DNA from: Pseudobutyrivibrio sp.
Lineage (GTDB): Bacteria; Bacillota; Clostridia; Lachnospirales; Lachnospiraceae
Direction of reading: 5' to 3'
Assembly (NCBI RefSeq): GCF_017471675.1
Contig: NZ_JAFUSK010000076.1
Span: 193 to 64,192, forward strand
Length of the DNA: 64,000 bases
Position 1 is the stretch's first letter, and every line of letters starts with the position of its first letter. The notes beneath the pieces were generated by a model. It was not told the DNA's origin. It searched no databases and saw only the letters and a list, made by a program, of their open reading frames with translations. This document shows, piece after piece, positions 34,240 to 47,531 of this stretch. The position numbers were made by a program, and so were the translations under genes.

Positions 34240-34269
34240 TTGTCAACATATAACGCCAGGTTGTATAAT
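34240..34269 (+). promoter_or_regulatory. Putative promoter of the main Wzx/Wzy operon
   Basis: TTGTCA-N18-TATAAT, 66 bp upstream of the ATG. Confidence 0.5.
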
Positions 34270-34335: not shown

Positions 34336-35538
34336 ATGAAAGTTTTAATGGTAAACAAGTTTCTATATCCTAATGGAGGATCGGAGACTTATATTTTCAA
34401 GCTAGGAGAAGCACTATCAGCCAAGGGACATGAGGTTCAGTATTTTGGTATGGAGCATGAGGGACGTTGCGTTGGCAATAGGGTAAATGCTTACACATCA
34501 GATATGGATTTTCATGATGCTAGTAAGTTTGAAAAGATGACATATCCTTTGAAGACTATTTATTCAAAGGAAGCTCGGCAAAAGATTAGGTTGGTGTTAG
34601 ATGATTTTAAGCCAGATGTTGTTCACCTGAACAATTTTAATTATCAGCTCACACCGTCTATTATATTAGAAATAGTCAAGTGGAGAAAGCAGACAGGACA
34701 AAGCTGTAGAATTGTATTTACAGCACATGATTATCAGCTTGTTTGCCCAAACCACATGTGTAACAATCCAAACACTCATGAGAATTGCGAAAAATGTTTA
34801 TCTGGTAAATTTATTAATTGTACAAAAGGTAAATGTATTCATGGAAGCACAGCAAAAAGTTTTATAGGTACACTCGAAGCTTCATTCTGGAAGCTTAAGG
34901 GGACATACAAATATATTGATAAGTTTATTTGCTGTAGTGAATTTATGAAGAGTAAGCTTGATAGCAATCCTCTATTTGCAAAAAAGACGGTTGCTATTCA
35001 TAATTTTATTGAATCTATACATTGGGTAGAGGTTGAAAAGGAAAATTATGTTCTTTACTTTGGAAGATATTCTGAGGAAAAGGGTATTCGTACACTTATC
35101 GAGGCAGCAAAGAGAATGCCCGAAGTGAATTTTATTTTTGCAGGTAAGGGTCCACTTGAAGATTTACTTAATGATGTGGATAACATCAAGAATGTGGGTT
35201 TTCAAAGTGGAGAAAATTTATCAAATCTTATTCGCAAGGCTAAGATGTCAGTTTATTCATCAGAGTGGTATGAGAATTGTCCATTCTCTGTTATGGAGTC
35301 ACAGATGTATGGTACACCAGTAATCGGTGCAAACATCGGTGGAATCCCAGAGCTCATCAAGGTTGGTGAGACGGGACTTCTTTATGAGAGCGGAGATGTC
35401 GATCAGCTTTGTGATGCTATCCACACAATCTGGCAGGATGATAGCAAAGCAAGGGTTATGCATGATGCATGTAAGGAATTAAGCTTTGACACTATTGATG
35501 AATATTTGGGTAAAATATTAAAGATTTACGAGGGTTAG
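34336..35538 (+). CDS. Family 4 glycosyltransferase
   Basis: GGSETY, LYFGRYSEEKG, YENCPFSVMES, GANIGGIPE. Confidence 0.92.
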   Translation: MKVLMVNKFLYPNGGSETYIFKLGEALSAKGHEVQYFGMEHEGRCVGNRVNAYTSDMDFHDASKFEKMTYPLKTIYSKEARQKIRLVLDDFKPDVVHLNNFNYQLTPSIILEIVKWRKQTGQSCRIVFTAHDYQLVCPNHMCNNPNTHENCEKCLSGKFINCTKGKCIHGSTAKSFIGTLEASFWKLKGTYKYIDKFICCSEFMKSKLDSNPLFAKKTVAIHNFIESIHWVEVEKENYVLYFGRYSEEKGIRTLIEAAKRMPEVNFIFAGKGPLEDLLNDVDNIKNVGFQSGENLSNLIRKAKMSVYSSEWYENCPFSVMESQMYGTPVIGANIGGIPELIKVGETGLLYESGDVDQLCDAIHTIWQDDSKARVMHDACKELSFDTIDEYLGKILKIYEG

Positions 35539-35541
35539 AAT

Positions 35542-36555
35542 ATGAGTGTGAAAAAAAATAGAGATATTTGGATAGATAATTGTAAGGTGTTTGCTATTTC
35601 AGCTGTTGTTATATGTCATTTCTTTGAATCTATGATGAAAGCGGATTTAGTTTCAGATTCATTCTTATATGAGTGGTTTGAACATACAGCTAGGTTTTAT
35701 GCAGTTAATCTATTTTTTATCTGTAGTGGCTTCTTGTATCAAAAGTATTCAAAAGTGAATTCGGTTGCTACATGGGTTAACAATATAAAGAAAAAATTTA
35801 TAGCATTTGGTGTTCCTTATTTTGTATTTACATTTGCGACCTGGATTTTAAAGACTGCATTTTCGAGTTCGGTAAATACAAAGGTTGATGGGTTGGGATA
35901 TATATTGTTCGCACATCCAACAGCCCCATATTGGTATCTTTATACATTGTTATTTATTTTCATGATTACAGTAACTGTAGAAAATAAAAAACAGATGTAT
36001 ATACTATTAGCTATTGCATTTGCTGCTAAAATAATAAGATTTTGTGGATTAGAAACCGGTTTATATTTTATAGATAGAACTCTTGATAACTGGGTATGGT
36101 TTGTAATTGGAATGGCGATTGCAAAGGATGTAATAAAACTAGTTAATGCCGTGTTCGGCTATATAATATTGGCATTACTACTTGTTAGCAGTGTGTATAT
36201 TGAAATGTATTTATCTGGAAATACAAAGGTAGCATTTGTAGCGGGGCTTGTATTGTGCTACGCAATAGCAAGTATTTTACATTCTATATTTTCAAATGGA
36301 GAGCAGAATAAGGTATTTGCGGTTATAGCGAAGTATTCAATGCCTATCTTTTTGATGCATACATTGTTCGCGGCAACATTTAGAATAGTTTTATTTAAGG
36401 TAGGAATAGATAATGCTGTCCTCCATATTATTTTGGGATTGGTAGTAACATTTGTTGGTCCAATAATTGGAATGATTGTTATGGAAAAAATTAGACCTTT
36501 GGATTTTATTGTATATCCAACACGTTATATTAAGTTAAAGAAAAAGGAGTATTAA
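35542..36555 (+). CDS. Acyltransferase family 3 (polysaccharide O-acyltransferase)
   Basis: WIDNCKVFAI...CHF, FFICSGFLY, PYWYLYTL, SMPIFLMH. Confidence 0.85.
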   Translation: MSVKKNRDIWIDNCKVFAISAVVICHFFESMMKADLVSDSFLYEWFEHTARFYAVNLFFICSGFLYQKYSKVNSVATWVNNIKKKFIAFGVPYFVFTFATWILKTAFSSSVNTKVDGLGYILFAHPTAPYWYLYTLLFIFMITVTVENKKQMYILLAIAFAAKIIRFCGLETGLYFIDRTLDNWVWFVIGMAIAKDVIKLVNAVFGYIILALLLVSSVYIEMYLSGNTKVAFVAGLVLCYAIASILHSIFSNGEQNKVFAVIAKYSMPIFLMHTLFAATFRIVLFKVGIDNAVLHIILGLVVTFVGPIIGMIVMEKIRPLDFIVYPTRYIKLKKKEY

Positions 36556-36557
36556 AA

Positions 36558-37730
36558 ATGGCTGAAAAGAAATTAAACGGAACCGTAATTGTAACTTACA
36601 GATGTAATGCTCGTTGCTCTATGTGCAATAGATACAAGGCACCATCAAAGCCTGAGGAAGAGATTTCAATCGAGACAATCAAGAAGCTTCCTAAGATGTA
36701 TTTCACAAACATCACAGGTGGTGAGCCTTTCATCAGAACAGATATCAAGGATATCGTTCGTGAGCTTTATAAGAAGTCTGATCGTATCGTTATTTCTACA
36801 AACGGTTTCTTTACAGATCGTATCGTAGATTTATGTAAGGAGTTCCCACAGATTGGTATTCGTATTTCAATCGAGGGACTTGAGGAGACAAACAACAAAA
36901 TCAGAGGTCTTGATAATGGTTTCCAGAGAGGTTACCAGACTCTTAAGACTCTTCGTGAGATGGGTATGAAGGACGTTGGATTCGGTATGACAGTTCAGGA
37001 TATGAACGCTCCAGATCTTGTACCTCTTTACCAGCTTTCAGATGAGATGGGTATGGAGTTTGCTACAGCATCTCTGCACAACAGCTTCTATTTTGTAGAG
37101 GCAAAGAACATTATCAAGGATCGTCCAATGGTTGCTCAGAACTTCGAGAACCTTGTTAACGAGCTTCTTGCAAGCAAGAGCCCTAAGAAGTGGTTCAGAG
37201 CTTACTTCAACCACGGACTTATCAACTACATTTATGGACAGAAGAGACTTCTTCCATGTGATATGTCATTTGATACATTCTTCATAGATCCATACGGTGA
37301 TGTAATGCCATGTAATGGTACAAAGGATAAAGAGGTTATGGGTAACCTTAATAACCAGTCTTGGGATGAACTTTGGAATTCTCCAGAGGCTGAGCAGGTT
37401 CGTTCAAAGGTTAGATGCTGTGACAGAGATTGCTGGATGATTGGTTCAGTTTCACCTGCAATGCACAAGTACATCTGGGTACCACTCTGGTGGGTAATCC
37501 GTCACAAGGCTAAGTTCTGGACAAAGAAGAAGTACAGCATGTACGAGAACAAGATTGTTCGTGATCTTCGCGATGGCAAGGTTACAAAGGAAGATCTTGA
37601 TAAGTGCAGTACTTGTGATATGTGTGCTACTGTAAACAATGGTCTTTCAGCAGCTTCTATGGAGCAGCTTAAGAATAAGACTGGCGAGGAAATCGTAGAC
37701 GCTGATATCGCAGCTCAGATGAATAAATAA
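36558..37730 (+). CDS. Radical SAM / SPASM-domain protein
   Basis: CNARCSMC, ITGGEP, LPCDM, IDPYGDVMPC, CCDRDCW. Confidence 0.92.
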   Translation: MAEKKLNGTVIVTYRCNARCSMCNRYKAPSKPEEEISIETIKKLPKMYFTNITGGEPFIRTDIKDIVRELYKKSDRIVISTNGFFTDRIVDLCKEFPQIGIRISIEGLEETNNKIRGLDNGFQRGYQTLKTLREMGMKDVGFGMTVQDMNAPDLVPLYQLSDEMGMEFATASLHNSFYFVEAKNIIKDRPMVAQNFENLVNELLASKSPKKWFRAYFNHGLINYIYGQKRLLPCDMSFDTFFIDPYGDVMPCNGTKDKEVMGNLNNQSWDELWNSPEAEQVRSKVRCCDRDCWMIGSVSPAMHKYIWVPLWWVIRHKAKFWTKKKYSMYENKIVRDLRDGKVTKEDLDKCSTCDMCATVNNGLSAASMEQLKNKTGEEIVDADIAAQMNK

Positions 37731-37761
37731 AAAAATTAACTAATTAAGATGAGGTATTTTT

Positions 37762-38775
37762 GTGGTTATAATATCAGATTGCTTGAAAAATAATTTAGAT
37801 GAGGGTTGTATAAAGGTAGCGTCAACTATTTCAAAGAAATTGAAAAAGGCTGGGGCTACTGTTGTGGCTGCTAATTGCGATTGTGATTATGCAGATTATA
37901 AAATTTCCGCAAATAAGATTTATACAAATAAAGAATTATATAATGCAATTTCTGAGTCGAATGGAGATATTTTATATATCCCATTCGCCTCAAATACCTT
38001 AGGATCTGCTGTAAGGACTTTTAACTTGGTTAGAAAAACAGGTTCGAAGATTAACGTTCTGTTTTCATTAAGATGGAACATGAATTGTTTAACTAAGTGG
38101 CTGCTTAAGGCTAGTAAATGCCGAGTAATTACAATTAGCCAGGAGTCCTACGAATTTTTTAAGAAGGAAATTCCAGGTGTAGCTGTTCATAATGTACAGG
38201 TTGGCGTTGACACATCAAAGTTTAAGCCTGTTTCAGAAGATCAGAAGAAGGCTCTTAAAGAGAAGTATGGTTTACCTCTTGATAAGACGGTTGTTCTACA
38301 CGTTGGACATTTGAAGCATGGTAGAAACATAGATGTTTTCTTAGATATTGATGATGATACCTATGCTGTTTTAGTATTCAGTGCTGTCACAGAGAAGGAT
38401 TTAGATCTCAAGAGAGAACTGGAGAAAAAGAAAAATATAAAGATTATAGAGGATTATGTTCCTAATATAGAAGAAATATATCAGGCTGCTGATATATATG
38501 TATTCCCAATTGTAGCTGAGAATAACAGTATAGATGTACCATTATCTGTATTGGAAGCTGCTGGAACTAATTGTAAGATTATTTCTACAAAATATAAAGA
38601 AATAGCTTATTTTGATGATGCCGAGGGATTCCACAGAGTATCTAATGAAGAAATGAATAATCTTCAGGGCATCATTAATGAAGTTTCAAAAGAAACAAGT
38701 GTTAATACTAGTATCATAGCTGAAAAGTATGACTGGGCTAAAGCACTAAATGACCTGAAAGAGATTATTAGATAA
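37762..38775 (+). CDS. Family 4-like glycosyltransferase
   Basis: VGVDTSKFKP, LHVGHLKHGRN, EIYQAADIYVFP, PLSVLEAA. Confidence 0.85.
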   Translation: MVIISDCLKNNLDEGCIKVASTISKKLKKAGATVVAANCDCDYADYKISANKIYTNKELYNAISESNGDILYIPFASNTLGSAVRTFNLVRKTGSKINVLFSLRWNMNCLTKWLLKASKCRVITISQESYEFFKKEIPGVAVHNVQVGVDTSKFKPVSEDQKKALKEKYGLPLDKTVVLHVGHLKHGRNIDVFLDIDDDTYAVLVFSAVTEKDLDLKRELEKKKNIKIIEDYVPNIEEIYQAADIYVFPIVAENNSIDVPLSVLEAAGTNCKIISTKYKEIAYFDDAEGFHRVSNEEMNNLQGIINEVSKETSVNTSIIAEKYDWAKALNDLKEIIR

Positions 38776-38780
38776 TTATA

Positions 38781-39821
38781 TTGGAGGATAAGTTCTTGGA
38801 AAAGCTAGTATCAATTATTGTACCAGTTTACAATGTTGAAAAATATTTAGATCGATGTGTTAATTCACTTATCAATCAGACATATTCAAATATTGAGATT
38901 ATCCTGGTTGATGATAAAACCAAGGATTCCTCTGGGGCTATGTGTGATTTATGGGCTCAGGAGCGTGATAATATCCAGGTTGTTCATAAAGAAAAAAATG
39001 AAGGCTTGGGATATGCTAGAAATACTGGTTTAGAATATGCAAAAGGTGATTATATCCTTTTTGTGGATTCAGATGATTATATTGAAAATACTCTTTGCGA
39101 AAAAGCTATAAAGCGTCTTGAAGAATCTTCTTCTGACATTTGTTATTTTGGTCACAAGAAGGATATTAATGGCAAAATTGTTGAAAGTGATTTAAGCGCT
39201 TTAAAGAATGAATATGAAGGCGAAGCTATTATAAATGATTTTCTTCTCAATACTTTAGCTCAGGCAGAGTGTGAATCTGGTGCGCCTAGAATCGGAATGT
39301 CTGCATGGAGAATTATGTATAGAGCAGAAGTGATCAGAAATAATAATCTTAAGTTCTATTCAGAACGTGATTATTTGAATGAGGACATGTTCTTCAGAAT
39401 CCATGTGGTTCAGTGCATAAAGAAAGTGGCAGTAATACATGAGAATTTATATTACTATTGCTACAATGGTGCGTCATTAACAACAAGCTATCGTAAGGAT
39501 AGATTTGAGGCATCAAAGAGAATGTACGAAAAGCTTGTAGAAGAGACTAATGTGTTTGATAACAAGGCAATTAAGCATAGATGTGAACGTGCTTTCATGA
39601 ACAATTTGATGGTTTGTGTTAGACAGGAAGTTACTTTCAAAGCAAGAGAAGATGTTGATTGCAAGGGACAGTTAAAGAAGTATTGTTCTGATTCTTTGGT
39701 TCAGGAAGTTATGCACGATTATCCAATTAATAAGATGCCAATTCAGCCTAGATTACTTTATTCTGCAATAAAGTTCAAATTGGTATTTTTAATTGAGTTA
39801 TTGGTTAGTTTAAAGGGCTAG
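38781..39821 (+). CDS. Family 2 glycosyltransferase
   Basis: VSIIVPVYNVEKYL, ILVDD, GLGYARNTG, FVDSDD. Confidence 0.93.
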   Translation: MEDKFLEKLVSIIVPVYNVEKYLDRCVNSLINQTYSNIEIILVDDKTKDSSGAMCDLWAQERDNIQVVHKEKNEGLGYARNTGLEYAKGDYILFVDSDDYIENTLCEKAIKRLEESSSDICYFGHKKDINGKIVESDLSALKNEYEGEAIINDFLLNTLAQAECESGAPRIGMSAWRIMYRAEVIRNNNLKFYSERDYLNEDMFFRIHVVQCIKKVAVIHENLYYYCYNGASLTTSYRKDRFEASKRMYEKLVEETNVFDNKAIKHRCERAFMNNLMVCVRQEVTFKAREDVDCKGQLKKYCSDSLVQEVMHDYPINKMPIQPRLLYSAIKFKLVFLIELLVSLKG

Positions 39822-39844
39822 TTTTTATACAGGAGAGAGTAAAA

Positions 39845-40747
39845 ATGGAAAAGATTAGTGTTTTAATGTGCACTTATAATGAACCAATCGAATGGGTATC
39901 ATTAACTTTGAATTCTGTGCTAAATCAAACATTAAAAGCAGATGAAATAGTTATTATTGTGGATAATCCTAATAATAATGAGATGATAGATTTTCTAAAG
40001 GCTGAGCAGGCTAAGAATGACACTATCAAAGTTTATATAAATGAGCAGAATATGGGTCTTGTTAAGAGCTTAAATCGCGGTCTCACATTTTGTTCAGGTG
40101 ATTACATTGCAAGAATAGATGCAGATGATATTGCATTGGAAAATAGATTTGAAGAGCAGATGAAATTCATCAAGGAGAAGAATGTGGATCTTGTTGGTGC
40201 AGGTTTCTACGTTTTCTATGATGATGAGATTCTAAAAACCAACATAGGCGTTGAAAATGCAAAATACTGTGAGAAGATTATGAATTACAACAGTATCATT
40301 GCACATCCTACTTGGTTTATGAAGAAAGAAGTGCCTGAAAAATTAAATGGATACAGGGACATTGATTCATGTGAAGATTTAGATTATCTCCAGAGAGCAG
40401 TTTTAATGGGATTCAAGGTGGCAAACGTCAGAGAACCATTATTAAAGTATAGAGATAATCCAAATAGTATTTCTCATGTTAAGAAGACAAAGCAGCACTT
40501 ATTAAAGACTTTATTATGTGAGTGCTATAAGAATAAAAAGATAATCTCAGAAAATGAGATTCAGCAGTATCTTAACAGCGAGCAGTATAAGAAGGATTTT
40601 AAGCGTAAAGAGACATATGACTCAATAAAGGACAAGAAGCTTGGAAAAGCAAAAGAGCTTGTCCAGGAAGCACAAAATGGAGTTTTGGATATTGAGTTCA
40701 TGATTCGCCTTAGAAACTTCAAGGTTAATTATTGGAAGAACAAGTAG
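39845..40747 (+). CDS. Family 2 glycosyltransferase
   Basis: ISVLMCTYNE, GLVKSLNRG, ARIDADD, IAHPTW, EDLDY. Confidence 0.92.
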   Translation: MEKISVLMCTYNEPIEWVSLTLNSVLNQTLKADEIVIIVDNPNNNEMIDFLKAEQAKNDTIKVYINEQNMGLVKSLNRGLTFCSGDYIARIDADDIALENRFEEQMKFIKEKNVDLVGAGFYVFYDDEILKTNIGVENAKYCEKIMNYNSIIAHPTWFMKKEVPEKLNGYRDIDSCEDLDYLQRAVLMGFKVANVREPLLKYRDNPNSISHVKKTKQHLLKTLLCECYKNKKIISENEIQQYLNSEQYKKDFKRKETYDSIKDKKLGKAKELVQEAQNGVLDIEFMIRLRNFKVNYWKNK

Positions 40748-40771
40748 TAGATACATTTGTAAGGAAATCGT

Positions 40772-42004
40772 ATGAAAATACAAAAATATTATAAATTGAA
40801 TATTGATGTTATAGACATCTTGGTAGTTGCTTTGCTTACAGCAATGTTGTTCTGGACGCAGACAAATTTTGGCACGGCCAACTATGCTTTATTGAAGCGT
40901 TCTAGAAATATTTTTCTTATATTAACTTGTGGAGTTTTATTGGCAAAGCAGGGATATATTTTTAAACCTAAAAATATTTTTAACAAGGATTTTTTGTTAG
41001 TTATATCACCTTATTTGTTTATTACAGTTTTGTCCATTTTCGAAGTAATAATCGATGGTGGTATTAGTTGGAAAGCAACTATTAGAGAAAATTCTGATGC
41101 GTTTATTCCATGTACAATAGCTTATGTCTTTTTTTACATCTATAGGACAAAAGTAATTGATTTCATTTATATGGCAAGTGTAATAAATTATACTTTTTAT
41201 ATTATTATGTTTGGAGTCAAATATGGTCCGGGCGGATATCTGAGAATCTTCCAGATTATGGAGATGGAAGAGAAGATGATGTCAAAGACACTTGAGGTTC
41301 ACGAAGTAACCTTTATGTTTGGTTTATTACTAATTTATTATTTAATAAATTATAAGGAGACAGATAAGAAAAAAATAATCGTCACGCTATTATATTTTGT
41401 AATAGGTAATAAACGAATTCTATTTGCTTCAGTTGCATTTGCTTTATTAGGGTATTTATATTTTAAGAAACATGAAAAGAAGATATGGATTTGGGCAGTA
41501 GGATTGTTGATTATTGTTTTTGGTTGGCTCTTCTTTGTTAATAGTCCATTTTATGAATTATCTGCAATGGCGCTTGGTATTGAATTGAACAGTAGAACAT
41601 TTTCTAATGGTGGATTATATGGTCAGTTAGCTGGCTATTATACAATGAGTCCATTATATATTGGTCATGGTGTTGGTTTTGTTCATTCTGTAATGATTAG
41701 TCAGCTGATTTCAGGAGCTGTAGGTACATCAGGATTCCATAATGATATCTTAAAGTATTACATAGATTTGGGATTCATACCATTTACTATATTTATTGTT
41801 TCGTTGATATGTATTATCCCAAGACGTTTAAAGAAGGATTATTCTGCGGAAAATGCAGTTCGTTATCTTGCTTTTTTAACACTTACATTAATTTGTTGGA
41901 CCACAGATAATCTTGCCACTTACCCTAATTATTTATTATTATCATTTGTTCTCTATTACTATTCTGTAATGGGGAATGAATCATCGACAGGAGAGAGTTG
42001 TTAA
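40772..42004 (+). CDS. Wzy-like polysaccharide polymerase
   Basis: About 10 TM; GNKRI, NSRT, GHGVGF, FHNDILKYYIDLG; position between GTs and flippase. Confidence 0.75.
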   Translation: MKIQKYYKLNIDVIDILVVALLTAMLFWTQTNFGTANYALLKRSRNIFLILTCGVLLAKQGYIFKPKNIFNKDFLLVISPYLFITVLSIFEVIIDGGISWKATIRENSDAFIPCTIAYVFFYIYRTKVIDFIYMASVINYTFYIIMFGVKYGPGGYLRIFQIMEMEEKMMSKTLEVHEVTFMFGLLLIYYLINYKETDKKKIIVTLLYFVIGNKRILFASVAFALLGYLYFKKHEKKIWIWAVGLLIIVFGWLFFVNSPFYELSAMALGIELNSRTFSNGGLYGQLAGYYTMSPLYIGHGVGFVHSVMISQLISGAVGTSGFHNDILKYYIDLGFIPFTIFIVSLICIIPRRLKKDYSAENAVRYLAFLTLTLICWTTDNLATYPNYLLLSFVLYYYSVMGNESSTGESC

Positions 42005-43108
42005 ATGAAGATTGCAGTAGTAACAGTTTACGATAGTATTGTAAATTTTGGGTCATTCTTGCAGGCTTACGCTTTAAAGAAATCCCTTGAGGATTTAGGT
42101 CATGAAGTTTACTTTGTTGAGAGAATGGCTACAGAAGATATTGTAGGTCGTTTCAATAAAATTGCTTTGGCAAATAGTAAGGTTAAGGAAGTTCCATTTT
42201 GGAATTTGCCAAGAAAATATAGCAGATATAAGAGGTACAAAAGAGCTTGTACTATTAATAATGAAAGACTTGCAGTATCAGTAAAAGATTGGGAGCTTTT
42301 AAATGTTATTTCAAAAGAGGAAGCTCTTAATTGTGATTGTATTATCTGTGGTAGTGATGAAATTTGGAATAAGAATAATAAAGACATAGATTTTGATTTT
42401 TACACATGCCGCTGGGCGAAAAACATTCAGAAGTATGCATACGCTATAAGTAGTGGAGATATGAAATTCGAACAGCTTGATAGCGATGAAGCTGAGTGGT
42501 TAAGTACATTTGAGTACTGCTTGGCAAGGGATGAGAATACTTTAGAGGTATTAAAGCAGTCTAAAGGAAATGTTTGGGATAATATCGTATGTGATCCTAC
42601 AATTCTTTATGGAAGTAAGAACTTTAAAACAGAGAAGCATTCCTCTGAAAAATATGATTTACCAGAAAGATATATGTTAGTTTACTCTTATGTGTATACT
42701 GCAAAGCAGAAGCAGATGTTGAGAGAGTACGCTAAAAAAAACGATTTAAAGATTGTATCTGTATCTTTGGATGCAGACTTTGCAGATATGACTATTTTTA
42801 CATCGGCATTAGATTTCCCATACCTTATGAAGAAGGCTGAGTGTGCTTATGTAGCAACATTCCATGGTTGTATCTTTGGAATGATGTATGCTAAAAAGCT
42901 CGCTATAGTTCCAAGATTACCAAAGATTGAATCAATTGTTAGAGTATGTGGTGCAGAGAAATATTTAATTAAAGAAGATTTTTCTTCAGATGATTTAGCT
43001 GCAACATTAGAGTCAGAAGTAAATCATACAACAATTGATGATAAGCTAGAGGCAATTAAAGAAAAATCACAGGATGCACTTGCTAAGATGCTCCAGCAGA
43101 ACATTTAG
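42005..43108 (+). CDS. Polysaccharide pyruvyl transferase family protein
   Basis: NFGSFLQAYAL, ICGSDEIWN, AYAISSG, LARD, CDPTIL, TFHG. Confidence 0.88.
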   Translation: MKIAVVTVYDSIVNFGSFLQAYALKKSLEDLGHEVYFVERMATEDIVGRFNKIALANSKVKEVPFWNLPRKYSRYKRYKRACTINNERLAVSVKDWELLNVISKEEALNCDCIICGSDEIWNKNNKDIDFDFYTCRWAKNIQKYAYAISSGDMKFEQLDSDEAEWLSTFEYCLARDENTLEVLKQSKGNVWDNIVCDPTILYGSKNFKTEKHSSEKYDLPERYMLVYSYVYTAKQKQMLREYAKKNDLKIVSVSLDADFADMTIFTSALDFPYLMKKAECAYVATFHGCIFGMMYAKKLAIVPRLPKIESIVRVCGAEKYLIKEDFSSDDLAATLESEVNHTTIDDKLEAIKEKSQDALAKMLQQNI

Positions 43109-43129
43109 GCAGAATTGAAAGATTAGATT

Positions 43130-44548
43130 ATGGCAAAAAAAAATAAAAGTAAAGAATTAATTAAAAATACAGCGATAATATCATTTGGTAAAATGTGTAC
43201 TCAGCTTGTTAGTTTCTTGCTGATGCCTTTTTACACAGCTATATTAACAACACAGGAATATGGTGTAGTTGACTTGGTTGTAACATATGGTCAGCTTTTA
43301 TTACCTGTATTTACACTCCAAATGGAGCAGTCACTTTTTAGATTTCTTCTGGATGTTAGAGATTCTGATGAAAAGAAACACGATATTATATCTGATATCA
43401 TGTCAATCACTTTACTGATGTCTGTTGTATTGAGTGGTGTATTTGTTGTAATATCATTTTTCATTAATACTGGTTATAATTACCTGTTATTGGCTAATTT
43501 ATGGGCGACACTTATTGTAACAATGCTTCTTCAGATTTCTAGAGGTTTTGGTATTAATAAGGTTTATGCCTTTGGTAGCTTTATATCAGCGGCTGGTCAG
43601 GTGACATTAAATATCGTATTTATTTTATGGTTAAGAATGGGTGCTACCGGAATGATTGCTGCAATGATTATTTCGCAATTAATTGCTGCAGTATTTGTTG
43701 CAAAGAGCATACATCTTGGAAAGTATTTATCATTTAGAGCAGTAAAGTGGAGTTCGATTAAGGAGTATGTCGGATACTCAGCACCATTAGTTCCAAATGC
43801 TATTTCATGGTGGATATTAAATGCATCTGACAGAACTATTATCTTAAGATTCTTAGGAGTTGGATTTAACGGTATATACTCTGCAGCTAATAAATTCTCA
43901 GGAATTTATACTACACTATTTAATATTTTCAATCTTTCATGGACAGAATCTGTAGCATTATACCTTAAAGATAAGGGTGCTAGTGAAGAATATACAGACA
44001 TGCAGAATAAAGTTATTGGTTTGTGTATAACTACTGCCAACGGTATTATATATGTAATGCCATTTGCTTTTTCTATTCTAGTAAACCAGAAGTTCCATGA
44101 TTCGTTTTATCAGATTCCATTGTTAGTTATGGGAGCATTCTTCTCATCAATGGTAGGTTTGATTAGTGCTTATTATGTGGCCGTTAAGAATACAGCAACA
44201 ATAGCCAGAACTACAGTTTTTGGTGCAATTTGTAATATCGCATTAAACCTTGCTATGATAACAAAAATCGGATTATATGCAGCTTCTATCTCAACTGTTC
44301 TTGCATATCTTATTCTTTTTATAGTTAGAACTATTGATGTTAAGCGTAAGTTTAACATTAAGCTTAACAAGAAGCTTTTCCTTTCAGGTGTAGTTATGAT
44401 GGGTATTGGATATAGCACATACTTTATAGATAAGTTAGTGGTATATATTATTGCTTTTGTTCTGTATGCAATTTATGCTTTCGTTGTTAACAAAAGATTA
44501 ATTGTTAAGACTGTTGGAATGATAAAAAGAAAGTCTTTATCAAAATAG
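43130..44548 (+). CDS. Wzx flippase
   Basis: LIKNTAIISFG, LMPFYTAIL, YSAPLVPNAISWWILNASDR, GIYSAANKF; 12-14 TM. Confidence 0.92.
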   Translation: MAKKNKSKELIKNTAIISFGKMCTQLVSFLLMPFYTAILTTQEYGVVDLVVTYGQLLLPVFTLQMEQSLFRFLLDVRDSDEKKHDIISDIMSITLLMSVVLSGVFVVISFFINTGYNYLLLANLWATLIVTMLLQISRGFGINKVYAFGSFISAAGQVTLNIVFILWLRMGATGMIAAMIISQLIAAVFVAKSIHLGKYLSFRAVKWSSIKEYVGYSAPLVPNAISWWILNASDRTIILRFLGVGFNGIYSAANKFSGIYTTLFNIFNLSWTESVALYLKDKGASEEYTDMQNKVIGLCITTANGIIYVMPFAFSILVNQKFHDSFYQIPLLVMGAFFSSMVGLISAYYVAVKNTATIARTTVFGAICNIALNLAMITKIGLYAASISTVLAYLILFIVRTIDVKRKFNIKLNKKLFLSGVVMMGIGYSTYFIDKLVVYIIAFVLYAIYAFVVNKRLIVKTVGMIKRKSLSK

Positions 44549-44580
44549 GGTGTTAGTTTTATAGTTTAGAGAGGGAAAAA

Positions 44581-46335
44581 ATGAATTACTATTCAAACGA
44601 AAAAAACCAGTTAATGTTAATTTCTTTGCTTAAGCAGCATGGTATTAAGTATGTTGTTGCTAGCCCAGGAGGTACAAACTTATCTCTTGTAGCTAGTTTT
44701 CAGCATGACCCATGGTTTAAGTTATATTCATGTGTAGATGAGCGTTCAGCTGCTTACCTTGCATGTGGTATTGCAGAGGAGACAAATGAGCCAGTTGTAA
44801 TCAGCTGTACAGGAGCTACTGCTTCTAGAAATTATATGCCAGGTCTTACAGAGGCATATTATAGAAAGTTACCAATTTTGGCCGTTACTTCTGCTCAGGA
44901 GTGGGGTAATATGGGACAGCTTAGTCCACAGGCTATTGATCGTAGCGCCGTTCCAAAGGATATTGTTGTAGAAAGTGTAAATATTCCAGTTATCAATTCT
45001 TATAACGATGAGTGGGGTAGCAATATCAGAATTAATCAGGCCATTTTAGCATTAAAGAAAAATGGTGGCGGCCCAGCTCACATTAACCTCGCTGCACAGT
45101 GGAGTGATGACTTCTCAGTTAAAGAATTAAAGACTGAAAGAGTTATTAACAGATATACTGTTAATGATACTTTGCCAGCTATTGAAGGTGAAAAGGTAGC
45201 TGTATTTATTGGAGCCCATAGAAAGATGGACAAGGGATTACAGGATGCAATCGATGCCTTCTGTGAGAAGAACAACGCTCTTGTTTTTGTGGATCATACT
45301 AGTAACTATTTTGGAAAATATAGAATTTTCCCAAGCATCTTATTCCAAGATAACTACACATCAGACAATACAAAGATTGATTTATTAATTCATATCGGTG
45401 ATGTATCTGGAGCATATTATAAGTTCAATATTAAGCGTGTATGGAGAGTAAATCTTGATGGAATGATTAGAGATTACTTCCATAAGCTTGAGAATGTTTT
45501 TGAAATGGATGAGAAGACATTCTTTGAGTACTATGCAAAGAATCCTAAGAAAAATGTTGGTTCTGGATATTACGAGAGCTGCAAGCAGGAATGTGATGAC
45601 TTATTAAACAGATTACCCGAGTTGCCATTCTCAAATCTTTGGATTGCAAGCCAGACAATTGACAAGCTTCCAGATAATGCACAGTTACATTTAGCAATTC
45701 TTAATTCGTTAAGAACATGGAACTATTTTGCTGGAAAGAACAACATGGTTTCATTTTCAAATACAGGTGGTTTCGGTATCGATGGTATCGTTTCATCTGC
45801 AGTTGGAGCATCTTTAGTAGCTCCAGAGAAGCTTATCTTCTGTGTTGTTGGTGATTTAGCATTCTTCTATGATTTAAACTCTATCGGTAACAGACATATT
45901 GGTAATAACTTAAGAATTATCTTAGTAAACAATGGTCGTGGAACAGAGTTTAAGAATTATTGGACACCAGGTTCATATGCTCTTGGTGATGAGACTGATG
46001 AGTACATTGCAGCAGCAGGTCACTTTGGTAACCAGTCACCAAAACTTGTAAAGAATTATGCAGAGAACCTTGGATTTGAGTATATTTCTGCTAGTGATAA
46101 AGAGTCTTTCGAAAAGAGTATTGCATACTTCACACAGGCAAAGTGTACAGATAAGCCAATTTTATTTGAAGTATTCACTAACAGTAAGGATGAGAGCGAT
46201 GCTCTTCACATTGCAAAGAATATGAAGCAGGGTTCTATTCTTCAGGCAAACAACCAGAAGAAGATTGCAAAGGATATTCTTGGCGAGAAGAACATAAATA
46301 AACTTAAGAAGATTAAGAACATCATTAAAGAGTAA
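44581..46335 (+). CDS. MenD-like thiamine diphosphate-dependent enzyme
   Basis: VASPGGTN, DERSAAYLACG, SNTGGFGIDG, GDLAFFYD...NNG; no other men genes nearby. Confidence 0.85.
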   Translation: MNYYSNEKNQLMLISLLKQHGIKYVVASPGGTNLSLVASFQHDPWFKLYSCVDERSAAYLACGIAEETNEPVVISCTGATASRNYMPGLTEAYYRKLPILAVTSAQEWGNMGQLSPQAIDRSAVPKDIVVESVNIPVINSYNDEWGSNIRINQAILALKKNGGGPAHINLAAQWSDDFSVKELKTERVINRYTVNDTLPAIEGEKVAVFIGAHRKMDKGLQDAIDAFCEKNNALVFVDHTSNYFGKYRIFPSILFQDNYTSDNTKIDLLIHIGDVSGAYYKFNIKRVWRVNLDGMIRDYFHKLENVFEMDEKTFFEYYAKNPKKNVGSGYYESCKQECDDLLNRLPELPFSNLWIASQTIDKLPDNAQLHLAILNSLRTWNYFAGKNNMVSFSNTGGFGIDGIVSSAVGASLVAPEKLIFCVVGDLAFFYDLNSIGNRHIGNNLRIILVNNGRGTEFKNYWTPGSYALGDETDEYIAAAGHFGNQSPKLVKNYAENLGFEYISASDKESFEKSIAYFTQAKCTDKPILFEVFTNSKDESDALHIAKNMKQGSILQANNQKKIAKDILGEKNINKLKKIKNIIKE

Positions 46336-46359
46336 TTCGGTAAAATCGAGGAGAGAATA

Positions 46360-47205
46360 ATGGGCGTTAAAACAAAGTTTTTGTATTTTGTTAAGCAGAT
46401 TTAAAGTGCAGTAAAAGAAGAAAAGATTACTAAAGTAATAGTTCCAACAGATAAGGATGAGATTTTAGCAGGTAAAAATGCTGTTATTGTTGGTGGAACT
46501 GGCGGAATTGGACTTGCAATTGCTGATACATTAAGAAATAGTGGATGTAATGTTGTGATTACAGGTAGAAGTCAGGAAAAGGCTGAAGCATCTGCTAAGA
46601 AAATGGGCGGTGAAAACATCCGTGGAGCAGCTCTTGATATTTCTAATATCGATCAGATTAGAACAAGAATTCCAGAGATTGCAAATATGTTCGATAATTC
46701 ATCTATCGACATTCTTGTTAATGCTGCCGGTGTTATCAGTACAGTTGATTTTCTTGATGTAACGGAGGAACAATGGGACACATTGATGGATGCAAATTTA
46801 AAGGGCTTATTCTTTACTAGTCAGGTTGTTAGTAAACATATGATTGAAAAAGGAATCAAGGGTCATATTTTAAATATTTCATCAGCATCATCATTAAGAC
46901 CAGCTTGGAAGCCATATCAGATTTCTAAGTGGGCTGTAAATGGATTTACTAAGGGATTAGCAGATACATTATTGCCATATGGTATTATATGTAATGGAAT
47001 TGCTCCTGGTCCTGTTGCAACCCCCATGATGAAAAAAGAAGGGGACGAGTCTTTATACAATCCAACAAATCCAGCGGGAAGATGTGCAGCTTCAGAAGAG
47101 ATTGCTAATTTAGCTTTATTTTTGGTGAGCTCAATGGGAGATTTAGTGGTTGGAGAGACATATGTAATTTCTGGTGGTGGCGGAACTATTTCGTATCACA
47201 AGTAA
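46360..47205 (+). pseudogene. SDR oxidoreductase interrupted by an in-frame TAA at codon 15
   Basis: RBS GAGGAG, ATG 46360, TAA 46402-04; same frame continues through GGTGGIG, VNAAG, YQISK and NGIAPG. Confidence 0.8.
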
Positions 47206-47294: not shown

Positions 47295-47531
47295 ATTGAT
47301 GGAGATTTTGTACAATAAAATGTTTTATTTGCATCATGTCACTATTTCACAAAAAGTATGTATTAGAGTATATCTTGTAACTTAATCAACACATTAGGAA
47401 ACATAATATTTTATTTAACATTCTGAAAATATATACTACACCGTTTAATTACAAACTAATCACAATTTATTTATATACTAAAAACACTAGCACGACAAAA
47501 ACATTTGTCGGGAAAGGATTGGGGTGTGCTT

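Follow-up and report, generated by a model that had tools for sequence, protein, structure and literature searches.

A pyruvyl transferase, MenD-like ThDP enzyme and reductase gene set in a Pseudobutyrivibrio glycan locus that probably adds an ether-linked hydroxy-acid side group to a surface sugar

The window analyzed here is a stretch of 64,000 nucleotides of a Pseudobutyrivibrio sp. genome (contig NZ_JAFUSK010000076.1), in which a tightly packed Wzx/Wzy operon is encoded on the forward strand. A promoter-like site (34240-34269, 11 of 12 matches) lies upstream of the operon genes. Pfam searches and gene spacing assigned to the upstream part of the operon (34336-42004, forward strand) genes for a GT4, an Acyl_transf_3 protein, a radical SAM/SPASM protein, a GT4-like protein, two GT2 proteins (38781-39821 and 39845-40747), and a Wzy-like polymerase (40772-42004). 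The 3' end of the operon consists of four genes on the same strand, which encode a polysaccharide pyruvyl transferase (PT; 42005-43108, 367 aa, PF04230), a Wzx-type flippase (43130-44548, 472 aa, PF01943 Polysacc_synt, 3e-15), a MenD-like ThDP enzyme (44581-46335, 584 aa, TPP_enzyme_N and TPP_enzyme_C), and a classical SDR ketoreductase (46360-47205, 281 codons, adh_short). The PT gene starts immediately after the stop codon of the Wzy-like gene, the gaps between the four genes are 21-32 nt, and no terminator was found 3' of the SDR gene by a simple scan. The ORFs that a first-pass annotation of this DNA had named were recovered at exactly the same positions; its assignments of the PT, the ThDP enzyme, and the SDR were correct, but the flippase between the PT and the ThDP enzyme had been left unnamed.

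The PT matched the PF04230 (PS_pyruv_trans) profile with 75.6 bits (8e-21, cut-off 25.3) over profile positions 1-272 of 280, while no solved structure was related to it by a sequence match at E values up to 1. The PF04230 domain and the kind of locus are shared with CsaB, WcaK, Pvg1, and GumL, which are ketal-forming pyruvyl transferases (reviewed in PMC6801904). These enzymes act alone to form cyclic pyruvate ketals, whereas the window PT has a ThDP enzyme and a reductase as genetic partners, to which it is fused in some organisms. The review of pyruvylation makes no mention of thiamine (PMC6801904). The characterized PF04230 enzymes yield cyclic ketals and not free enol ethers, an observation that counts against the chemistry that we favor below. 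As for the flippase, members of the same cluster (c6_486) occupied the same position between the PT and ThDP genes in 16 other loci of the comparison described below, and a second flippase type (c3_512) was present in 44 loci.

The SDR frame ending at 47205 scored 126.8 bits against adh_short. It starts at the ATG at 46360, with GGAGAG upstream at 46350-46355, and it encodes the TGxxxGxG motif, the N-S-Y-K tetrad, and an N-terminal extension of approximately 35 residues that is typical of the family. In this assembly alone, the frame is broken by an in-frame TAA at codon 15 (46402-46404, forward strand), where near-identical relatives have TCA (Ser); an intact orthologue of 281 aa is present in the loci L010 and L011. 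The longest clean SDR ORF (46555-47205) lacks the TGxxxGxG nucleotide-binding motif. Position 46407 is a second difference private to this assembly, and metagenome contigs from four runs of three studies all had C at 46403 and A at 46407. The earlier assignment of an SDR holds for the protein class, with the corrections that the gene starts at 46360 and that its frame is cut at codon 15 in this assembly. If the stop is real, the side group discussed below would remain a 4-oxo acid.

We then examined the ThDP enzyme, for which the best NCBIfam model was menD (TIGR00173). The score against this model was 167.7 bits, below the curated cut-off of 244.2, whereas true MenDs of the same phylum scored 460-512 bits; one member of the family reached 238.9 bits, just under the cut-off. 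Proteins of this family carry the database label "thiamine pyrophosphate-binding protein", with menD as the best curated model. The closest solved relatives were all MenD (EC 2.2.1.9; PDB 2X7J, 5EJ4, 3LQ1/9E9B, and 7TIN), with which the enzyme shares the three-domain ThDP fold. The family profile aligned with MenD over the full length (E 2.5e-86) and with acetolactate synthases at approximately 1e-22. Catalytic Glu54 and the GDL...NN ThDP motif (G424-N451), both shared with MenD, are intact in the window enzyme, and E54, G424-D425-L426, and N450-N451 were invariant across 46 family members.

The residues that bind the MenD substrates were different. R32, R106, R409, R428, I489, and F490 in Bacillus subtilis numbering are the strictly conserved substrate residues of MenD, and R428 is its main 2-oxoglutarate-binding arginine (PMC2914249). 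All nine true MenDs in our comparison read R-R-R-R-I-F at these positions. In the window enzyme, R32, R106, R428, and I489 are replaced with T32, Q106, T395, and E456, respectively, while R409 and F490 are retained as R378 and F457, as is MenD Q118 (Q117); R378, which in MenD serves both substrates, is the only one left of the four active-site arginines. At the position of R428 (Thr395 in the window enzyme), 104 of 125 family members carry Val or Thr, and Glu456 is nearly invariant in the family, in contrast to Ile in MenD. In a FastTree phylogeny, the nine MenDs formed one clade with 100% support, and the window protein was placed on the other side together with 124 proteins from glycan loci, its family being the sister group of MenD. 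When 400 genomes were sampled from the order to which a Paucibacter locus belongs (NCBI class Betaproteobacteria), all proteins obtained outside the seed genome had the arginine signature of MenD; the small alignment from this sample was unreliable at position 456, and residue 456 was not taken from it.

The top curated model and all of the best solved structures are MenD, and automatic annotation would give this protein the name of a genuine MenD (SEPHCHC synthase), a menaquinone biosynthesis enzyme that would be located in a glycan locus by chance. We consider this extremely improbable. Besides the low score, the loss of three of the four strictly conserved arginines and of the Ile, and the position outside the fully supported MenD clade, the rest of the pathway was missing. 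In the genome, which is 98.2% complete, menA had no match, the best match to menB reached 134 bits (cut-off 342.7) and that to isochorismate synthase 175.6 (cut-off 224.75), and no true menD was found above the cut-off. The first-pass annotation had stated that there is no menaquinone context, and this holds genome-wide, with no men pathway gene above cut-off; other men genes, the presence of which it had named as evidence against its own reading, were looked for and none was found. A menaquinone role was rejected, as it failed four independent tests, namely score, residues, tree, and pathway.

To learn in what company the family occurs, we used a genome collection with one genome per species, which held at least approximately 590 related stretches, and analyzed the best 80, which come from at least eight phyla. 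Cultured carriers of the cassette include Bacteroides intestinalis, Selenomonas ruminantium ATCC 12561, Shewanella hanedai JCM 20706, Moryella indoligenes DSM 19659, and Proteiniphilum acetatigenes DSM 18083. The window PT was similar (approximately 25% identity) to the PTs adjacent to the ThDP genes in 49 of the 80 other loci. Among the 57 well-flanked loci, defined by at least 3 kb on both sides of the ThDP gene, 50 have a reductase gene directly adjacent to the ThDP gene, 43 have a PT gene no more than 3 kb from it and 47 no more than 10 kb, and 43 have both PT and reductase. The remaining loci count against our preferred reading: 10 of the 57 had no PT within 10 kb, and five had no recognized reductase. 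In these five loci without SDR, extended-SDR-like protein, or AKR, no reductase was recognizable among the neighbors except a GT2-nitroreductase fusion (L053). The reductase slot was filled by unrelated types, namely classical SDRs, extended-SDR-like proteins (in roughly one cassette in three), and AKRs carrying an Fe-S domain, and this interchange fits a simple carbonyl reduction. Natural fusions were also found, joining ThDP enzyme and PT (P0131, P0171, P0173, and P0186), GT2, reductase, ThDP enzyme, and PT (P0134), AKR, Fer4, and ThDP enzyme (P0122, P0126, and L069), and GT2 and SDR (L073); four of them were confirmed on DNA. The cassette was present in an ABC-transporter-type locus as well, which suggests that it acts in the cytoplasm.

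The co-occurrence analysis that had been proposed as a check on the three genes thus showed their linkage by cross-phylum synteny and natural fusions. Judged from these gene arrangements, the PT/ThDP/reductase trio is a real functional unit, and the earlier idea that the three genes together serve an unusual acid substituent and not menaquinone is supported by synteny, fusions, and the absence of men genes. Full-text searches of the literature turned up no publication on the trio in a glycan context, only two megapolipeptin/chitinimine papers.

The first-pass annotation had likened the trio to YerE, and a pathway of this kind would proceed differently from the one that we favor. In such a pathway, a keto-sugar carbonyl would receive an acyl unit from the ThDP enzyme by 1,2-addition, the new side-chain ketone would be reduced by the reductase, and the resulting branched sugar would then be pyruvylated by the transferase. 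A ThDP carboligase followed by a reductase is indeed the established layout of the yersiniose A pathway of Yersinia pseudotuberculosis (YerE/YerF), and the extended-SDR-like reductases have a fold typical of nucleotide-sugar enzymes. However, YerE is a flavoenzyme of the acetolactate synthase type that acts on a CDP-4-keto sugar, whereas the window enzyme is of the MenD type by the profile comparison given above. In Pfam scans of the ORFs, neither an NDP-sugar 4,6-dehydratase nor any other gene for making keto sugars was found in the operon, and among the 80 loci a dehydratase/epimerase cluster was present in only nine, with no consistent keto-sugar-forming companion. Direct fusions of ThDP enzyme and PT, as well as the megapolipeptin product described next, point to a pyruvyl unit as the partner instead. 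The YerE analogy is therefore not supported, and we regard this pathway as quite unlikely.

By annotation and product, the closest precedent of the trio is the pair MgpK/MgpL of Paraburkholderia megapolitana. Megapolipeptins contain 2-hydroxy-4-oxoheptanedioic acid joined via its C2 oxygen, and their gene cluster encodes the PT MgpK and the ThDP lyase MgpL, annotated as a SEPHCHC synthase, which were proposed to make this moiety; a related cluster in which the PT has no such partner yields a simple pyruvate acetal (PMC11411415, PMC13291983). The roles of MgpK and MgpL are proposals, and the authors offered lipid peroxidation as an alternative source (PMC11411415, PMC13291983). As in the window, where the two lie in one operon, a PF04230-type PT is paired with a MenD-like ThDP enzyme, and the product has the skeleton that would arise if an acyl anion were added to an enolpyruvyl unit. 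The megapolipeptin pair differs in that it decorates a lipid hydroxyl of a PKS-NRPS-PUFA product and not a sugar, in that its donor is evidently 2-oxoglutarate, giving a C7 diacid, and in that no reductase is involved and the 4-oxo group is retained.

With this precedent, we infer that the PT, the MenD-like enzyme, and the SDR, together with a dedicated Wzx and GT2, constitute a mobile glycan-tailoring cassette that would extend a PEP-derived enolpyruvyl unit by an acyl anion and then reduce the ketone; we give this chemistry about an even chance of being right. The substrate of the cassette would be the lipid-linked repeat unit while it grows on the cytoplasmic side. The PT would first transfer a C3 enolpyruvyl unit from phosphoenolpyruvate to a sugar hydroxyl. 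The ThDP enzyme would then decarboxylate a 2-oxo acid to generate an acyl anion, and subsequent Stetter-type 1,4-addition, as in MenD, would take place on the CH2= carbon of the enolpyruvyl group instead of isochorismate, giving an ether-linked 2-alkoxy-4-oxo acid. Reduction of the 4-oxo group by the reductase would finally leave a 4-hydroxy group. Among natural Stetter-type enzymes MenD is the textbook case, and an enolpyruvyl ether is part of its own substrate. Genes of the window family differ from menD in lying in glycan loci, where they adjoin or are fused to PT and reductase genes. On the other hand, the alkene of an enolpyruvyl ether is electron-rich and accepts Michael additions poorly, which counts against this proposal. 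The first two steps may run in either order, and the ThDP enzyme acting first, on PEP, is the order proposed by the megapolipeptin authors (PMC11411415, PMC13291983); the description of MenD as a natural Stetter-type enzyme is likewise in the literature (PMC2914249).

The first-pass annotation had proposed that a MenD-type enzyme would use 2-oxoglutarate to give a C4-acid unit, which the transferase would attach. Although the megapolipeptins offer a real precedent for a C4 unit derived from 2-oxoglutarate, together with a PT and a MenD-like gene in their cluster (PMC11411415, PMC13291983), 2-oxoglutarate is doubtful as the donor in the window because the MenD arginine for this substrate is Thr395 here, and use of this donor was not supported by the predominance of Val and Thr at the site. 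The loss of a single arginine is not proof against 2-oxoglutarate; five distant family members retain an Arg of the R428 type in the same cassette layout. From these residues, a small 2-oxo acid such as pyruvate appears more likely than 2-oxoglutarate as the donor, and pyruvate would give a 2,4-dihydroxypentanoate 2-ether. Attachment of a finished C4 acid by the transferase found no support either; the PT family and the megapolipeptin product make it more likely that the PT supplies a C3 enolpyruvyl unit for extension by the ThDP enzyme.

It is also conceivable, though unlikely, that the enzyme is a plain decarboxylase working with an aldehyde reductase. A free 2-oxo acid would in that case be decarboxylated to the aldehyde, and this would be reduced to an alcohol or hydroxy acid that is attached to the glycan afterwards, or the diol of which is pyruvylated. 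An example is the conversion of 2-oxoglutarate via succinic semialdehyde to 4-hydroxybutyrate, the C4 acid of the first-pass annotation. Glu456, in place of the MenD Ile, would correspond to the catalytic Glu of pyruvate decarboxylases and would also suit an enzyme that simply releases an aldehyde, and all of the interchangeable reductase types are able to reduce aldehydes. Yet the cassette lacks an activating enzyme (kinase, nucleotidyltransferase, or CoA-transferase) needed to attach a free hydroxy acid, the donor of PF04230 enzymes is PEP and not a hydroxy acid, and the GT2 and PT fusions argue for tailoring on the glycan itself; the loss of the MenD 2-oxoglutarate arginine also disfavors the example given. 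A phosphonate route through PEP mutase and phosphonopyruvate decarboxylase was rejected, as no PEP mutase family was found by Pfam in the window ORFs and the enzyme is of the full three-domain MenD type.

The cassette occurs in hundreds of bacterial species and probably adds an ether-linked hydroxy-acid side group to a surface sugar. Ethers of this kind are known, since 2-ethers of 2,4-dihydroxypentanoic acid occur in Providencia alcalifaciens O31, as part of its O-antigen (PMC10609480), although no Providencia carrier was among the best 80 of the approximately 590 matches. We put forward only tentatively, as a possibility that could well prove wrong, that the cassette is the route to ether-linked 2,4-dihydroxy acids on glycans such as Providencia O-antigens. 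Its ThDP enzyme would then be a natural "Stetterase" on a glycan-bound or PEP-borne enolpyruvyl group, and the cassette would represent a new class of polysaccharide tailoring that horizontal transfer has carried into at least eight phyla and that is common among Bacteroidota and Clostridia of the gut.

One practical consequence is that menD-like labels on such genes may falsely suggest a capacity for vitamin K2 in gut bacteria. If the proposed chemistry is true, carbon-carbon extension of a pyruvyl group would be a new decoration of surface polysaccharides, the origin of rare ether-linked hydroxy acids in O-antigens would be explained, and biocatalysis would gain many natural Stetter-type enzymes that differ in their donor pockets. 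Acidic side groups of capsules shape recognition by phages and antibodies, and a mobile cassette that adds one would bear on the diversity of gut strains.

The glycan operon of the window is composed of co-directional, tightly spaced genes, of which the first begins near 34336, behind a promoter-like site at 34240-34269. Its first part encodes a GT4, an Acyl_transf_3 acyltransferase, a radical SAM/SPASM enzyme (36558-37730; flanked by the acyltransferase and a glycosyltransferase), a GT4-like protein, two GT2 enzymes, and a Wzy-like polymerase, in this order. The operon ends with a polysaccharide pyruvyl transferase (PS_pyruv_trans; PT, 42005-43108), a Wzx flippase (43130-44548), a MenD-like ThDP enzyme of 584 aa (44581-46335), and a classical SDR (46360-47205), with gaps of 21, 32, and 24 nt. 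The first-pass annotation had placed and named the PT, the ThDP enzyme, and the SDR correctly but had left out the flippase in the middle.

We compared the ThDP enzyme with MenD. The best curated model was menD, with a score (167.7 bits) below its cut-off of 244.2 bits; true MenDs sampled in the same phylum scored 460-512 bits, and the two formed separate groups. Because a profile of 46 family members was aligned over its full length with MenD structures at an E value of 2.5e-86, versus approximately 1e-22 for acetolactate synthases (ALS), the sequences place the glycan ThDP family as a sister of MenD and not of ALS or YerE. The cofactor machinery of the family (Glu54, GDL, and NN) was invariant. 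In Bacillus subtilis MenD, strictly conserved residues have been assigned to the substrates by mutagenesis, R32 and R106 to isochorismate, R428 mainly to 2-oxoglutarate, and R409 to both (PMC2914249). In the window enzyme, R32, R106, R428, and I489 were replaced with T, Q, T, and E, respectively, and R409, F490, and Q118 were retained. The seven compared sites read R-R-Q-R-R-I-F in all nine true MenDs and T-Q-Q-R-(V/T)-E-F in most of the 125 glycan family members. In the tree, the MenDs formed a single clade with 100% support, and the window protein fell on the other side. The host genome (98.2% complete) gave zero matches to MenA and none above the cut-off to MenB, isochorismate synthase, or MenD, which upholds the earlier statement that there is no menaquinone context. 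The presence of other men genes, named beforehand as evidence against the proposal, was not borne out. Taken together, the score, the replaced residues, the tree position, and the absence of men genes from the genome rule out a true MenD. Another protein (565 aa; L107, G114:C42:7955-9202) scored 238.9 bits, slightly below the cut-off, with an intermediate signature, R-R-Q-R-L-E-F; its apparent place in the tree is among the glycan proteins, and proteins of this kind are at high risk of annotation as MenD.

The family of the window ThDP enzyme is large: a word-index search gave at least 8000 clusters, and at least approximately 590 confirmed stretches came from scanning a collection with one genome per species for a peptide pattern. 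The best 80 of these belonged to Bacteroidota (36), Bacillota (22), Pseudomonadota (11), Verrucomicrobiota, Actinomycetota, Spirochaetota, Synergistota, and Chloroflexota, and their ThDP enzymes were all about 50% identical to that of the window, a level across phyla that marks them, as judged from sequence, as horizontally traded glycan-locus genes. HMMs made from cassette neighbours were run on all 80 loci, all neighbouring ORFs were clustered, and co-occurrence was counted in the 57 loci having at least 3 kb on both sides of the ThDP gene. A reductase adjoined the ThDP gene in 50 of the 57 loci and was found anywhere in 52 (27 classical SDRs, the window's subfamily; 24 extended-SDR-like; one AKR). 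The PT lay within 3 kb in 43/57 loci and within 10 kb in 47/57, and both partners were present in 43/57. A dedicated flippase (two types, in 44 and 16 loci) and a GT2 immediately 3' of the PT were also regular members. The usual order was flippase-reductase-ThDP-PT-GT2 in Bacteroidota and Pseudomonadota, and PT-flippase-ThDP-reductase in Bacillota, including the window. Natural fusions comprised ThDP-PT in either order (P0131, P0171, P0173, and P0186), a single 1653-aa GT2-reductase-ThDP-PT protein (P0134), AKR-Fe/S-ThDP (P0122, P0126, and L069), extended-SDR-ThDP (P0157), and GT2-SDR (L073), four of which were verified on DNA as uninterrupted ORFs. Since one fusion is located in an ABC-transporter-type locus, the cassette chemistry is cytoplasmic. 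The co-occurrence analysis that had been proposed for the trio, together with the fusions, thus bore out that PT, ThDP enzyme, and reductase are a functional unit.

The replacement of the reductase by non-homologous types, and its absence at times, fits a simple, dispensable carbonyl reduction. One cassette locus without SDR, extended-SDR, or AKR encodes a GT2-nitroreductase fusion of 639 aa (L053:3807-5723), which may be a fourth kind of cassette reductase. In another (L004:18210-19502 and neighbours), an extra PT stands beside an FrhB/F420-dehydrogenase-like Fe-S flavoprotein; such a pairing of PT and reductase recurs separately from the cassette and might yield lactyl (1-carboxyethyl) ethers.

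In the open literature searched, we found no treatment of the trio in glycan loci. The sole precedent found for the PT and ThDP pairing is a natural-product, not a glycan, system: megapolipeptins carry 2-hydroxy-4-oxoheptanedioic acid, whose C2 oxygen links it to a hydroxyl of the lipid. The authors propose that this moiety is built by two products of the megapolipeptin cluster, the PF04230 transferase MgpK and the ThDP lyase MgpL, the latter annotated as SEPHCHC synthase; where a sister cluster has only the transferase, an ordinary pyruvate acetal results (PMC11411415, PMC13291983). The heptanedioate skeleton would be expected if, by analogy with MenD, an acyl anion derived from 2-oxoglutarate underwent 1,4-addition to an enolpyruvyl group at its methylene carbon. 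Carried over to the cassette, the PT would put a PEP-derived C3 unit onto a sugar hydroxyl, the ThDP enzyme would lengthen it, and the reductase would turn the 4-oxo into a 4-hydroxy group; the first two steps could occur in either order, as the megapolipeptin authors suggest PEP as the first target of ThDP action. The YerE-like route to a branched sugar raised in the first-pass annotation has less in its favour because the ancestry is of MenD type, not ALS type, because the window operon and most cassettes lack keto-sugar-forming genes, and because ThDP enzyme and PT are directly fused in some proteins. Alternatively, a plain decarboxylase and an aldehyde reductase would give a free hydroxy acid, the C4 acid suggested earlier. 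This gains something from Glu456 of the window enzyme, which we take to occupy the position of the catalytic Glu in pyruvate decarboxylases, but an activating enzyme for attaching the free acid is missing and the fusions are left unexplained.

As for the donor, the window enzyme lacks the arginine to which 2-oxoglutarate binding in MenD is mainly due, which speaks against the 2-oxoglutarate assumed earlier and makes a small 2-oxo acid, e.g., pyruvate, more likely. With pyruvate, the product would be a 2,4-dihydroxypentanoate 2-ether, a known substituent of the Providencia alcalifaciens O31 O-antigen (PMC10609480). Five distant family members with the same cassette layout retain the arginine, and therefore donors may differ among subfamilies. 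We know of no established biosynthetic route to the Providencia O31 ether.

Just downstream of the cassette, two convergent genes for proteins of 570-580 aa (47505-49247, plus strand; 52761-54473, minus strand), neither with a Pfam match, are separated at 49297-52741 by an IS110-family transposase gene (minus strand, 49497-50750) and the reverse transcriptase/maturase gene of a group II intron (51334-52653). Because the two flanking genes are immediate neighbours in a near-identical relative (L010), the mobile elements represent an insertion in the window strain.

The SDR gene starts at ATG 46360, preceded by GGAGAG, and its codon 15 is an in-frame TAA (46402-46404) in the window assembly; the next ordinary start codon, at 46555, is already past the TGxxxGxG nucleotide motif. 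In two relatives (L010 and L011; ThDP protein 98% identical), the gene is intact (281 aa) with TCA at codon 15, and metagenome contigs at least 95% alike over the SDR stretch (four runs, three studies) all have C at 46403, so the stop is private to the window assembly. A second private difference lies four bases further on, at 46407, with T in the window and A in the four runs and both relatives. Either a nonsense mutation has arisen here recently or the stop is an error, and two private changes within five bases could reflect a local assembly or sequencing error. Apart from this private reductase stop codon, its sole special feature, the window cassette shows nothing out of the ordinary for its family, which is widespread and uncharacterised.
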